The notes beneath the pieces were generated by a model. That model saw only the letters and a program-made list of their open reading frames with translations. It ran no database searches and had not been told where the DNA came from. A stretch of DNA of 6,444 nt, counting the filler, from an uncultured virus (IMG/VR IMGVR_UViG_2061766007_000865) (Duplodnaviria > Heunggongvirae > Uroviricota > Caudoviricetes). It is 2 parts of one record of this genome, joined end to end, with 100 filler letters (N's around TTAATTAATTAA, not from the genome) between each part and the next. Parts side by side here need not be neighbours in the genome. Positions count along the whole stretch, not along the records: positions 4,374 to 6,444 come from IMGVR_UViG_2061766007_000865; 1 more part is not named here. One strand, given 5' to 3'. The translations under genes and the position numbers were made by a program. Below, in pieces: positions 2-6,444 of this stretch (its first letter is position 1; every line of letters starts with the position of its first letter).

Positions 2-649
2 AAAGTAAATGAAAAAGCTTGCATTCAATTACACAAACTGATTAATAGCGGTGATGAGAAGGGTGCAATTAATCTCATTAACTCTGAGAAAGACATTGAC
101 GTATCTTATGAATACAATGGTAGAATCCCTATTTTCTTCGCATTTAACAAGAGAATGTATGATTTGGTTGAGGTAATTGTAAATCATCCAACATTTAATC
201 CGCTTATTGAAGATGGATTTGGGGAATCATTTTTAGAATCATTGTTATATTTGTATACAGCAGACGAATGCACTGATGATGACAGAGCAGAAATCAAGAG
301 ATACATTGATTTGCTATTGAAGTCAGAAAATACTTGTTTTAACCACAAAGACTTAAATGAGGACACAGCTCTTAGTATTGCTTGTGAATATCCTCAATTG
401 CTTTGGGTTGTTGAATTTCTTGCCTCCAAGGAGGAAGTTAACGTTAATACAATCAACGACATTAATTTCTCACCATTGACTAGTGCCATCNNNNNNNNNN
501 NNNNNNNNNNNNNNNNNNNNNNAAAGAGAAAGGACATTGTGGTTAGGGAGATTGATGTCAAGAAAGCGAAGGAGAACAACATTGACCTTTCAAAGTATGG
601 ATTGGAAATCAATGCTGAATCTGAGTTTGCTTGCGCAATGGCAGAATAA
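2..649 (+). CDS. Ankyrin-repeat protein (5'-partial)
   Basis: The frame of ORF 155..649 is open back to base 2 (KVNEKACIQLHKLINSGDEKGAINLINSEKDIDVSYEYNGRIPIFFAFNKR-MYD...). It contains ankyrin-like motifs NGRIPIFFA, DLNEDTALSIAC and VNVNTINDINFSPLTSAI, and ends in TAA. The N-run at 491-522 keeps frame. Confidence 0.8.
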   Translation, partial: KVNEKACIQLHKLINSGDEKGAINLINSEKDIDVSYEYNGRIPIFFAFNKRMYDLVEVIVNHPTFNPLIEDGFGESFLESLLYLYTADECTDDDRAEIKRYIDLLLKSENTCFNHKDLNEDTALSIACEYPQLLWVVEFLASKEEVNVNTINDINFSPLTSAIXXXXXXXXXXXKRKDIVVREIDVKKAKENNIDLSKYGLEINAESEFACAMAE

Positions 650-1036: not shown

Positions 1037-4000
1037 TTAAATATCATCGAATGAAACTCCTTCGGGGGTTAGTATGAAGTCGATTGTGATATACTCAAGA
1101 GCGTTGTAAGGTTTGAAGTAAATCTTAACTGGAAGTTCTCTTCTCTCCCTTGACTCAATTGTATCATTAATCTCGATTCTGTAATCAGAGATACCTCTGT
1201 TGCTTCTGATGCTATCCATGATTGGAGTTACAGTAGACATGAATGACTGTTTAACTGTTGCATCGTTTGGCTCGAAGATAAGACCGATACAAGAGATTGC
1301 AATCAACTTTCTCATTCTGAGAAGCAATCTACGTACAGCGATTCTATTAAGCTGAGACTCATTAATCTGAAGGTTCTTCTGACCCCAAATCTTTGGCCCA
1401 TCTTGTGCGAAGGTCTTGATTGGGTTGATTCTACCCTCATAAAGAACGTCCTCGTCTCCAAGCTTTGTGATGAAGTGTGCTCTCACGCAGTCAACATCAC
1501 CACGATTGATACCTGCTGGTGCGAACCAAGGATAAGCTGTGTTATCAGTCTGTGCGAAGTTTCTAACTGCATCCTTTGTTGCTGGAAGATAGATGTACTG
1601 ACTATTCTCCTTATCAAGGTACTTAACCCAAGGATAGTAAGTACAAGTGTAGTTAGAATCAATCTCAGTGTCCTCAAGATTACCTACAGCCTCATCTGGT
1701 GTGTACATTTCATCAACGTAGTCACCAGCACCACTTGGCTTATCTGGAGTTGTTACAACGTAGATTGAGTCTGCTCTCTCTTCCTCAATCATATCGATTG
1801 CCTCCTCTACAAGAAGCTTCTGATTTACGTAGTCGATACCTGGAGTTGCAAATACGTTGATATCTGCTTCCTCTGGATTAGCGAACTGACGGATACCACT
1901 TAAGTAAGCATACCAGTCAGAGGTAATGCCATTCTGATTCAACTTAAGAAGGTCTGGGTCTTTGATTCTGTTGAATGCATAACCCTCACCACTACCTTGA
2001 TTAATAAAGCCTTTATACTGAGACATCTTGTAACCGTCTGTATTGGTTCTTTGGTCTCTGTAGTCATCCCATCCATCGAAACCACCGTAGAAGTAAACAG
2101 TGAACTTACGAAGGTTTACATACTCATAGATTGAACCATACATTTCATCCTCAGTACCGATGATTGGTGGCTCTGACAATGTAGAAGTTCTAGAGTTGGT
2201 AGAAACTGCATCAAACTCATAACCACTCTCACCGTCAACAGTGTATGCTGAAAGATAAATGCCACCCTTTGCACTACTGTCAAGTCTTGAATCAAGGTGG
2301 AAACCACGTGACAAGAACTTTGGATTATCAATGTATGCCTTATTGCCCTTGAAGGTGAAGTTATCGATGTCAACGCCTACCCAAGAAGAAAGACCGAAAT
2401 ACTGCTTTCTATTTTTGATGTCTTGGTCGAAGAATCTGTTGTACTTAAGAGTTGGGAATGCAACACTTTGTGCACTACCGCTTATTGGAGTACCACTATA
2501 ACTAGGCTGTGGATAGCCCAAGAAACCTGCTGGAACTGACATTCTAGCTGCCGTAGAATCATTTACCTCAACTGTAATGTACTTAGATTTAGACTCGTAT
2601 ACGCCATCGAATGAACCAATCTTATATGCGATATAGTTAGAAGTGCCTGGAATCATTGAACATCTTCCAAATCTCTCAAGTGGCATAATCTGCTCATCAC
2701 CATCGTTGATGTCACGAACTACAACATCGAATGTACCCTCATCTGGTCTGATGTTTTCAATTGAAATCTTAACCTCATAGTTTGCATTATTACCGTCAGT
2801 GATTGTATGGAATCTGAACAATTTATTGATTTCAGCGTGGGTAAAGTCACCCTTTAAGTTAGATACAATCCAAGGAGTTGAAGCGTATCTGTAAGCTGAC
2901 TTGTAATCGTTCATATCAAGCTCAACGTAAGTAACGTCAGTCTTTCCAGTATTCATTCTGTAATAAAGGCCATCAACTGCGTTCAATACAAGTGTGGCTT
3001 CTTTTCTAGTATTAGTTTTAGTTCCACCATCTTTAAGGTTTCCATAGAGATTGGTCATATCAGTACCAGATAGAACACTAGTAAAGTCTTGCTTATAATA
3101 AGCATAATGATAGCTTCTCTTACCATCCTTATTGGTATATTGTCTTACAGTGTAAATCTGTCCAACCAATACGTCCTCTGCACCAAAATCTGACTTGGTT
3201 ACGTCAACTGGAGCATTCTTGTCATAACTATAAGGTACAGCCTTTATACCAAGACCATTTCCACCATCCTTAGTTGACATCTTATCAGCAAGGAATCTCA
3301 TACCGACATGCTTTCTTCTAAGTGATGACTCTGGCATTCTAAGTAAGCCGCTAATTGGCTCATGCCANNNNNNNNNNNNNNNNNNTCATAATATACGTCA
3401 AACATACCACTAGCGCCACTGTATTCGCCACTTGTAATTGTTTTACCGCTGTTAATCATGGTAACTTTATCTTCAACAATTGCTTGGTCAAGTGCCACGT
3501 CATAAAGAGACTCAACGAAGATTGGAGCATCACCATCATAAGGTTTTGTACCAAGTACATTAAGGATGTATTCCTTATCATAAGGATTAAGTGTTACTGG
3601 ATACTCAAAATAACCTTTACTGTAATCCTTACTGTTTATAATGGTATTAACTTCAGATGAAGTGTATACACCTTTAACACCGACAAGTTTAAATCTACCG
3701 TGATTTGTTTGAGAGACGTTCCAATAAGGAGTACCACCACTCATTCCATAATCACTACATTCATTACCATTGCTTGTCATTGGAACATACTCTTTAATTT
3801 GAAGGGCATTCATGTTATATCCATTCTTATCACAGATGTTTTCCCCTCTACCACTATTTGGTTTCTCACCAACATAGTACTTAAGGACATCATACTTTGA
3901 ATCTTCACATGTACAAGCACTTGTAGAACCAGTATTATATGGACTATAAGTACCTCTTGAACGGATTACAGCAACAGCAACTTTTCCACTGCCATCTGCT

Positions 4001-4272: not shown

Positions 4273-4373
4273 TNNNNNNNNNNNNNNNNNNNNNNNNNNN
4301 NNNNNNNNNNNNNNNNNTTAATTAATTAANNNNNNNNNNNNNNNNNNNNNNNNNNNNNNNNNNNNNNNNNNNN

Positions 4374-4386: not shown

Positions 4387-4392
4387 ATTTAG

Positions 4393-4463
4393 AGCGAATA
4401 AACGGAGTCGAACCGTCATCTAAGCCTTGGAGGGGCCTTGTCCTACCATTGAACGATACTCGC
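4393..4463 (-). tRNA. tRNA-Gly(UCC), with C at position 33
   Basis: GCGAGTA TC GTTC AATGGTA GGAC A AGGCC CCTCCAA GGCTT AGAT GACGG TTCGACT CCGTT TATTCGC T; full cloverleaf with U73. Confidence 0.9.
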
Positions 4464-5323: not shown

Positions 5324-5710
5324 TTAATCGATTTTCTTCAATGGAACGAACAAATCATATCCATCATCATCTTGAAAATGATTTATTTTGGCATCTTGCC
5401 ATTCACCGAATTTATACCTTTTATATTCAAAGCATTTACCATTCCAAGTTGCTTCATTCGCATTTCTGCATTCACCTTCATAAGTTGCGCCAATTTCAAG
5501 TTTGTCCTTTGGTATTGCTCCACAACGGATGAGGTTTTTCACTATAACCTCTTCATATATATGAGGGTCATCAACCTTTGGTATACTTGGTATGTCATCA
5601 ACTGTTTTGAATGGTTTTAGGTTTTTGAACCTCTCTATTCTCTCGATGCCTTCTTTTGCTTTTCTTTCACAAAGTCTTTGTTTTATTTTTTCTAATTTCT
5701 TACTTTCCAT
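5324..5710 (-). CDS. Hypothetical phage protein (128 aa)
   Basis: ATG..TAA ORF with protein-like composition (GAIPKDKLEIGATYEGECRNANEATWNG...HFQDDDGYDLFVP), located between tRNA genes; no function recognised. Confidence 0.8.
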   Translation of the reverse strand: MESKKLEKIKQRLCERKAKEGIERIERFKNLKPFKTVDDIPSIPKVDDPHIYEEVIVKNLIRCGAIPKDKLEIGATYEGECRNANEATWNGKCFEYKRYKFGEWQDAKINHFQDDDGYDLFVPLKKID

Positions 5711-5735
5711 TATCTAACATCTATTCTTATGTTAG

Positions 5736-5810
5736 TGAGCTAGGTCAGAGTCGAACTGACACCTTTCAGAGCCACAATCTGATGCTACTACCAATTAAGC
5801 TACTAGTTCC
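5736..5810 (-). tRNA. tRNA-His(GUG) with encoded G-1 and A73
   Basis: G GAACTAG TA GCTT AATTGGTAG TAGC A TCAGA TTGTGGC TCTGA AAGGT GTCAG TTCGACT CTGAC CTAGCTC A. Confidence 0.88.
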
Positions 5811-5838: not shown

Positions 5839-5909
5839 AAGACACGTAGGGACTCGAACCCTAATCTCTTGGTAAAATCCAAGGTTCTAACCCATTGAGC
5901 TACATGCCT
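5839..5909 (-). tRNA. tRNA-like element with shortened anticodon arm (undetermined; possibly Lys(UUU)-derived)
   Basis: AGGCATG TA GCTC AATGGGTTA GAAC CTTGG ATTTTA CCAAG AGAT TAGGG TTCGAGT CCCTA CGTGTCT T. Acceptor and T stems are fully paired; the anticodon loop is 6 nt. Confidence 0.75.
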
Positions 5910-5934
5910 GATGTCTTACCTACTGCTTGCTTTG

Positions 5935-6007
5935 TCTAGATGAACGGACTCGAACCGCCGACCCCAGCATCCCAAATGCCGTATTCTACCTACTGAACTA
6001 CACCTAG
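5935..6007 (-). tRNA. tRNA-Pro(UGG)
   Basis: CTAGGTG TA GTTC AGTAGGTA GAAT A CGGCA TTTGGGA TGCTG GGGTC GGCGG TTCGAGT CCGTT CATCTAG A; C1-G72 and A73. Confidence 0.95.
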
Positions 6008-6020
6008 ATTTATTTTGTTG

Positions 6021-6068
6021 TGGGGTTGGTAGGATTCGAACCTACTGCGTTTCTAATGTACTAGATTT
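6021..6068 (-). tRNA. 3' exon of an intron-split class II tRNA, best fit tRNA-Tyr(GUA)
   Basis: AAA TCTAG TACATTAGAAACGCA GTAGG TTCGAAT CCTAC CAACCCC A: loop positions 36-38, anticodon 3' stem, 15-nt variable arm, perfect T arm, C72 and A73. No 5' half is adjacent. Confidence 0.75.
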
Positions 6069-6193
6069 CCTACCACTCTATGTTACCATAGCCAAACAAA
6101 TCTAATTTTAGACATTTATATGCTCTACTAGTCAATGTTTGTTGTGGTCTGGAATACATTATTACCATATTGAAATTCTTGCAAGATAATCAA
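6069..6193 (-). ncRNA. 3' portion of a probable group I intron in the tRNA anticodon loop
   Basis: Terminal G at 6069. S-element-like ATAATGTATTCC (6162-6151). P9-region helices ACCAC/GTGGT (6148-6144/6076-6072), CAAACA/TGTTTG and the GNRA hairpin CTATG-GTAA-CATAG (6091-6078). The 5' core is not seen in the window. Confidence 0.7.
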
Positions 6194-6332
6194 GTAACTG
6201 AACTACGCAAGCCGCTTGTAGATAGTANNNNNNNNNNGCGAATCTCTTTCAGTTCAAGAATATCTCTTGCAATCGTACCCCACTGGCGATACGCATGGTC
6301 ATAGTANNNNNNNNNNTTTAAGGGTTTTTAAC

Positions 6333-6374
6333 AAAAAAAGCGGTGGCTAGGCTTTGATTGATTACCTAGTCACC
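6333..6374 (-). terminator. Possible rho-independent terminator
   Basis: 10-bp inverted repeat GGTGGCTAGG (6342-6351) / CCTAGTCACC (6365-6374), with T7 following on the minus strand. It sits on a short inter-gap fragment. Confidence 0.5.
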
Positions 6375-6444
6375 ACGTCAAAANNNNNNNNNNTTCGTAA
6401 CTCTCATATTCTCTTCCGTTGATTGTAAACTTCATAACCCTATT

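Follow-up and report, generated by a model that had tools for sequence, protein, structure and literature searches.

The locus analysed here raises a simple question: why does a phage tRNA gene appear as a 3′ half only, and what is the sequence that stands where its 5′ half should be? We have studied the whole stretch of 6,444 nucleotides that contains it (hereafter the window), in which the initial annotation had proposed a phage tRNA split inside its anticodon by a group I-like intron, a reading that our analyses support. The reported feature, a tRNA 3′ half preceded by an intron end, is real, and the observation is confirmed. The 3′ exon, of class II type, lies on the minus strand at 6021..6068 (read 6068→6021, AAATCTAG...CCAACCCCA) and supplies positions 36–73 of a tRNA-Tyr(GUA), i.e., A36, A37 and A38, the anticodon-stem 3′ strand TCTAG, a long variable region, the T arm GTAGG-TTCGAAT-CCTAC, the acceptor 3′ strand CAACCCC and the discriminator A at 6021. 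The sequence ahead of it reads ...TAATAATGTATTCCAGACCAC...CTATGGTAACATAGAGTGGTAGG, which includes the stretch CTATG-GTAA-CATAG-A-GTGGT-AGG, and its last base is G 6069. This 3′ half had been described as clean, a word that does not hold for the variable arm, since it pairs only weakly (C-G, A.C, U-A, U-A by eye). No 5′ half is present, and GGGGTTG, the start of the 5′ exon, is absent from the whole window.

The split tRNA in the window is not called by ARAGORN, either by default or with -i, and at 80% stringency the program gives only a forced, poor 'tRNA-Leu' at the split site. An exact search with the 54-nt junction string returned no match in the viral contig collection. We also considered a tmRNA and rejected it, as ARAGORN -m reported none and Rfam matched only 17–18-nt scraps of T arm.

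The missing half can be read in a homologue. A 31-nt string from window positions 6190–6220 matched a single contig, the 3645-nt metagenome contig L090, which is 96.6% identical to the window over 1045 nt (6227→5194). Here ARAGORN -i reports a tRNA-Tyr(gta) at 1526–2170 with a 558-nt intron. Its 5′ exon runs GGGGTTG...CTAGACTGT, with exactly the start and the end that had been expected of the lost exon, and its 3′ exon (2122–2169) is identical to the 48 nt of the window. The anticodon loop is CUGU|AAA; that is, the gene is split between U35 and A36 of GUA, and the identity of the tRNA as Tyr follows from this anticodon. When the window-type 3′ exon is joined in silico to the 5′ exon of L090, ARAGORN recognises a tRNA-Tyr(gta) of 87 nt. 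From 6227 to beyond the neighbouring tRNA-Pro, the window and L090 are identical except for two bases of J8/7 and the tip of P9a. Another phage contig, L070, carries a second tRNA-Tyr with the same split (CTGT|AAA) and a related intron of 562 nt. The proposed split at 35/36, with G 6069 as the terminal base and an exon supplying positions 36–38 (AAA), is therefore borne out by these two genes and by the family-wide position of the intron-final G given below.

The window alone does not give positions 34–35, and the alternatives to Tyr that had been named are a CUA/UUA suppressor and Ser(U|GA). These are highly improbable. Both L090, whose 3′ exon is identical, and L070 have 5′ exons ending in CTGT and so carry G34 and U35, which gives GUA; the position of the terminal G, constant across the family, sets the splice at 6069|6068; G1-C72 and A73 are seen in the sequence, and the ARAGORN call is Tyr. 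Actually, all the features of a bacterial-type tRNA-Tyr are found, namely GUA, a long variable arm (with a weak stem), G1-C72 and A73, and of these the window itself has C72, A73 and the variable region, as well as A36 of the anticodon; we take G1-C72 and A73 to fit bacterial Tyr identity. Tyr genes without an intron occur at the same cluster position in relatives, where only 54–59 of 87–91 columns match the joined exons. As they are too divergent from the latter, no empty-site allele has been found. No long open reading frame was apparent by eye in the 558-nt intron of L090.

The split gene is one member of a family in large phages. The 23-base motif of the intron 3′ end (GGCTATGGYAACATAGAGTGGYA) is found at 34 loci in viral contigs, at 30 of which it is followed, after two bases, by a T arm and an acceptor strand, and matching 5′ exons lie 470–780 nt upstream of it. 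Since this order is kept so widely, and since the exon and most of the 159 nt preceding it recur unchanged in the complete split tRNA-Tyr of L090, the feature in the window is beyond chance. We have resolved 25 genes (L090 included) with 7 insertion sites: Arg(UCU) split at 36/37 (6 genes) or at 34/35 (4), Leu(UAA) at 34/35 (8), Leu at 33/34 (1), Lys(UUU) at 34/35 (2), a CAU tRNA of Met/Ile type at 36/37 (1) and Tyr at 35/36 (2, those of L090 and L070), together with L076, whose split site is unclear. The 5′ exon ends in T in all 25, and 24 of them, once their exons are ligated in silico, are called as standard tRNAs by default ARAGORN. The intron-final G stands at a fixed offset after GTGGYAN in 35 of 37 aligned rows, the exceptions being L076, which shows a one-base shift, and L082. 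Across five complete relatives, a pattern made of R, P3′ and P8 gave a single match, and the known copy in G003 was missed because of an insert; the intron family is thus sparse in these genomes, and repeat-induced misassembly is not established.

The window belongs to a giant tailed phage of the rumen. An ORF at 1037–3337 (minus) encodes the tail sheath (PHROG 23, E 4e-44; Pfam PF17482), and its closest relatives, 86% identical, sit on IMG/VR contigs of 409–413 kb. In these relatives no tRNA lies within 10 kb of the sheath gene, and the tRNA cluster is elsewhere in the same genomes. In the phage GenBank collection no near match to the window was found, only distant matches of tRNA size. All tRNA genes of the window are on the minus strand. 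The 3′ exon is adjoined by tRNA-Pro(tgg) at 5934–6007, which is followed by a tRNA-like gene with a 6-nt loop at 5839–5909 and, downstream in the same cluster, by tRNA-His(gtg) at 5735–5809; tRNA-Gly lies at 4392–4463 (ARAGORN/Rfam). The gene order Tyr-Pro-odd-His is also present in L048–L051 and in L090.

This setting bears on another explanation. It is common for a temperate phage to carry a host tRNA gene's 3′ part, reaching from the anticodon loop to the gene end, and the 3′ half in the window could be such an attP site, or a chance tRNA fragment, with no intron involved. It sits, however, in a phage tRNA array; the 25 resolved related genes show the intron 3′ end before the 3′ half and a matching 5′ exon upstream; and no integrase was found among the 8 window ORFs scanned. 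The probability of an attP site or chance fragment is close to nil, and the 3′ half is taken below as the exon of a split gene.

Several neighbours of the split gene have features of their own. The odd gene at 5839–5909 scores 41 bits with the Rfam tRNA model and is labelled 'tRNA-??? (tt)' by ARAGORN; its anticodon arm, CCTTGG-ATTTTA-CCAAG, can be read with a 6-nt loop or as 4 bp with an 8-nt loop. This arm is invariant in all six related loci, the acceptor stems vary, and the gene always lies between tRNA-Pro and tRNA-His. The ORF at 5324–5710 (minus, 128 aa), which adjoins tRNA-His, matches PHROG 18490 (function unknown, E 1e-21), and its DNA is 95% identical in G003, where it adjoins tRNA genes as well. 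At the other end of the window, an ORF at 2–649 (plus), open at the window start, shows a weak ankyrin-repeat match (PF12796, 28.8 bits, barely above the cut-off).

As for the intron, the window keeps only its 3′ third (6069–6227, 159 nt, minus strand), which comprises P8′, J8/7, P7′, a branched P9 and the terminal G; the 5′ exon, P1, P3–P6 and the 5′ strand of P7 are absent. Reading from the break, 6178..6227 is the distal part of the insert in the P8 loop and the last stretch that matches L090 (identical to its positions 1952–2001). It is followed at 6165..6177 by the P8 3′ strand AATTTCAA and TATGG, the 3′ half of a CCUAAG/UAUGG tetraloop-receptor-like motif, whose 5′ partner CCTAAGTTGAAATT is found in L090 and absent from the window. 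The S element occupies 6152..6164 and consists of J8/7 (TAATAATG, 6164–6157) and the P7 3′ strand TATTC (6156–6152); in Rfam alignments of bacterial relatives it aligns with AAGAUAUAGUC of RF00028. The P9 domain (6072..6148, from the minimum free energy fold and homologue pairing) is closed by ACCAC (6148–6144) with GTGGT (6076–6072) and branches into P9a (6141–6136 with 6098–6093, with a variable tip) and P9b, the hairpin CTATG-GTAA-CATAG (6091–6078). The pairs of P9 are standard in 20–24 of 24 introns, and one G-C for A-U exchange is seen. The terminal G (omega G) at 6069 is placed by its fixed offset after GTGGYAN, so that the 3′ splice site is 6069|6068. The initial annotation had recognised an S element followed by P9 helices, and both were correctly placed, as follows from the Rfam alignments of bacterial relatives: in one of them, intron L142, J8/7, P7′ and P9 read ...CUAUGGCGAAGAUAAAGUCCAGACCACAAC, to which the window offers the near-match ...TATGGTAATAATGTATTCCAGACCACAAC, with the GTAA-loop P9 after it. 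The fold of 6069–6165 alone is not significantly stable (z -1.62; 15 of 200 shuffles as stable), though the P9 branches appear in it. The tip of P9a differs wholly between the window (6093–6141, minus) and L090 (2041–2095) over 40–50 nt with identical flanks, and looks like an exchanged cassette.

A search with Rfam RF00028, which had been suggested as a check, did not serve for this purpose: with nine phage loci tested, there was no match on the window (E<=1) or on full-length phage copies (E<=10), and three whole genomes of relatives gave nothing over the cut-off (one unrelated match of 17.7 bits). Since RF00028 is silent on the phage copies, the defining group I features were tested directly on the 24 introns that could be anchored. 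The homologue core contains P3, P4, P5, P6 and P7 in the expected order, forming the two domains P4-P6 and P3-P8, and the crossing of P3 and P7 is that of the group I pseudoknot. In bacterial relatives the core also maps onto the consensus structure of the Rfam model. In P1, the guide consists of the three bases 42–40 nt upstream of the CGG of P4, which pair with the last three exon bases (in L090, exon ...TGT opposite guide GCA). The pair at the splice site is U.G in 24/24 introns, and the second (C-G 7, U-A 14, G-C 2, A-U 1) and third pairs (U-A 8, C-G 15, A-U 1) are likewise standard in 24/24. P10 is formed by the two bases 5′ of the guide and the two that open the 3′ exon (22/24 standard at each position), with TT facing AA-exons, AA facing TT-exons and AG facing CT-exons.

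The core helices show the same behaviour. P4 is standard in 144/144 pairs (TTCGG/CCGAG in 14 introns, AACGG/CCGTG in 10). P3 has 135/144 standard pairs with compensatory changes (ATCTCCC/GGGAGAT, ATCACCC/GGGTGAT, ATCTTCC/GGAAGAT, GTTGG/CCAAC), and inner P6 has 107/120, compensatory changes being seen in P5 and P6 too. For P7, 111/120 pairs are standard over 10 distinct strand pairs, such as GACTG/CAGTC, GAGTA/TATTC, GAACA/TGTTC, GGCCA/TGGTC and GAGCA/TGCTC, and the first pair, which may be the guanosine-binding one, is G-C in all 24 introns. When the 3′ strands were dealt anew among the introns, the observed level of pairing was reached in 0 of 2000 shuffles for any helix, in a control that ignores relatedness.

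Bacterial relatives connect these introns with Rfam. In bacterial genomes, a 23-base phage core motif (GTGTAGAGACTNNACGGNNNNNNCCTAAG) has an estimated 1500 matches; 80 of these were fetched, and 69 lie inside intron-split tRNAs reported by ARAGORN, 48 of them Leu(taa). RF00028 matches 15 of 19 tested bacterial motif loci at E<=0.01, four of them above the gathering score. The phage intron appears to belong to a lineage found in the anticodon loops of bacterial tRNAs, and its group I status, inferred from covariation and shared core motifs, carries with it a prediction of self-splicing. The long inserts of the phage copies may lower their RF00028 score. None of the seed sequences of RF00028 is bacterial (Williams 2020, bioRxiv 10.1101/2020.01.27.920355).

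What, then, has removed the rest of the gene from the window? The homology with L090 ends exactly at a run of 10 N (6228..6237), in line with the assembly problem that had been suspected. This is one of nine N runs in the window (491, 661, 891, 3368, 4274, 4330, 6228, 6307 and 6384), the last three of which have 10 N each. Of the pieces beyond it, 6317–6383 (a hairpin and a T run) has an exact 30-mer in the relative G001 near 224.5 kb and 6238–6306 an 84% match at 235.7 kb; they are thus ~11 kb apart there and >100 kb from the Tyr-Pro-odd-His cluster of G001 at 110.8 kb, the sheath gene of which is near 328 kb. The terminal piece, 6394–6444, has no match in the five complete relatives. The N block 4274–4373 is another point where L090 and the window part, and there the matches of the sheath relatives stop too. 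At 4274–4373 and at the three 10-N runs, the window behaves as if pieces that are far apart in relatives had been joined; the run 3368–3385 is spanned by a continuous alignment. In our view it is likely that such N runs are joins of unlinked pieces made in scaffolding and do not mark a deletion.

Alternatively, the gene could be a dead remnant in the phage of the window, if recombination or deletion had taken away the 5′ exon and all of the intron but its 3′ third. Neither an intron core nor a 5′ exon is indeed seen in the window upstream of 6227, and degenerate copies do exist in the family (L054/L080, L081 and L087, with 7 acceptor bases and 14 nt before the intron). On the other hand, the break falls exactly on a 10-N run, the pieces past it are separated by 11 kb in G001, where they also lie far from the tRNA cluster, and L090 leaves the window at the N block 4274–4373 as well. 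Moreover, a contig from run X1 is of window type, with the J8/7 of the window, three P9a letters of the window and the same net shortening there, and it extends upstream as L090-like intron sequence to L090 position 1804. A dead remnant is unlikely on this evidence. We conclude that 6021–6227 (minus) very probably forms the end of a phage gene for tRNA-Tyr(GUA) with a group I intron of ~560 nt between positions 35 and 36, of which the window lacks the 5′ two thirds.

If the intact gene works as its parts suggest, the internal guide sequence (GCA in the Tyr copies) would form P1 with UGU at the end of the exon and so place a U.G wobble at the splice site, which free guanosine bound in P7 would attack. 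The terminal G (6069) would next occupy the guanosine pocket in P7, the two U's 5′ of the guide would pair with A36 and A37 of the exon (P10), and exon ligation would give a tRNA-Tyr of 86–87 nt.

According to the run records, the runs containing L090 are bovine gut metagenomes and metatranscriptomes. In three RNA libraries, contigs cover the interior of the intron, and the 158-nt contigs over L090 1863–2020, which span window 6178–6227, show no difference from it. These RNA contigs cover neither the exons nor the neighbouring tRNAs, and the joint 1563|2122 was not seen among the 15 of 25 joints listed. They are assembled contigs, DNA may have been carried over and tRNAs do not assemble well, so that this coverage speaks neither for nor against splicing.

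Group I introns in the anticodon loops of bacterial tRNAs are assigned to subgroup IC3 in the literature, with those of cyanobacterial and plastid tRNA-Leu(UAA), Azoarcus tRNA-Ile(CAU), tRNA-Arg and tRNA-fMet as examples; the phage intron may resemble the Azoarcus and cyanobacterial IC3 introns. It shares with the bacterial anticodon-loop introns the insertion after U, the final G, and P1 and P10 built with the guide. With those recognised by RF00028 it further shares the J3/4-P4-J4/5 block, the R block (GTGTAGAGACT..ACGG), CCTAAG...TATGG in P8 and the S block. Unlike them, the phage introns are 470–780 nt long (about 200–250 for bacterial RF00028 matches), bear inserts in P5, P6 and P8 and a branched P9, are carried by a phage of about 400 kb and are missed by RF00028. 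Overall, the mechanism has nothing unusual for a group I intron in a tRNA anticodon loop, such as bacteria and plastids have; what sets this one apart is its carrier (a ~400 kb phage), its size, its inserts and the failure of RF00028. The classes of bacterial tRNA group I introns have been extended from 4 to 21 (Williams 2020, bioRxiv 10.1101/2020.01.27.920355). For phages, the review PMC3984707 places all introns known to 2014 in protein-coding genes, despite the many phage tRNA genes. Those of the T4 td/nrdB/sunY type and others interrupt protein genes, and many contain an ORF for a homing endonuclease. The present intron resembles these T4-type introns as one of self-splicing type in a phage genome and differs from them in having a tRNA gene as its site. 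A literature search of titles and abstracts found no group I intron in a phage tRNA gene.

Since standard tRNA finders and Rfam miss such split genes, tRNA counts for large phages come out too low, in this case by one tRNA-Tyr, and arguments on phage codon supply or recoding can err through missed split tRNAs. In addition, one intron lineage at >=7 (at least seven) anticodon-loop sites in five isoacceptor types offers a good system for the mobility of ORF-less group I introns, as well as a ready set of natural guide-sequence variants. The exchangeable tip cassettes, together with intron sequence lacking flanking exons in rumen RNA libraries, lead to the idea that the introns are more than selfish passengers, in that splicing would gate tRNA availability or the excised intron would carry small functional RNAs. 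Gating might, for example, keep the anticodon loop from host anticodon nucleases. We consider this idea quite improbable.

Some further arrangements have been observed in the family. In L054/L080 (1084–1700), L081 and L087, ACATCCG and 14 nt stand ahead of the intron with no full 5′ exon; ACATCCG is the perfect complement of the 3′ acceptor strand, and three different contigs share this arrangement. L054 also has an intact tRNA-Arg(UCU), 8 nt upstream. The peripheral inserts of L057, L059, L064 and L085 (alignment A1, columns about 380–860) contain T-arm-like hairpins, GGTTCGA.TCC, and L057 has a longer insert stretch that starts like a tRNA D arm. The Lys intron of L062 (A1 columns 680–1035) apparently has two successive S/P9-like 3′ ends, of which the degenerate one comes first.
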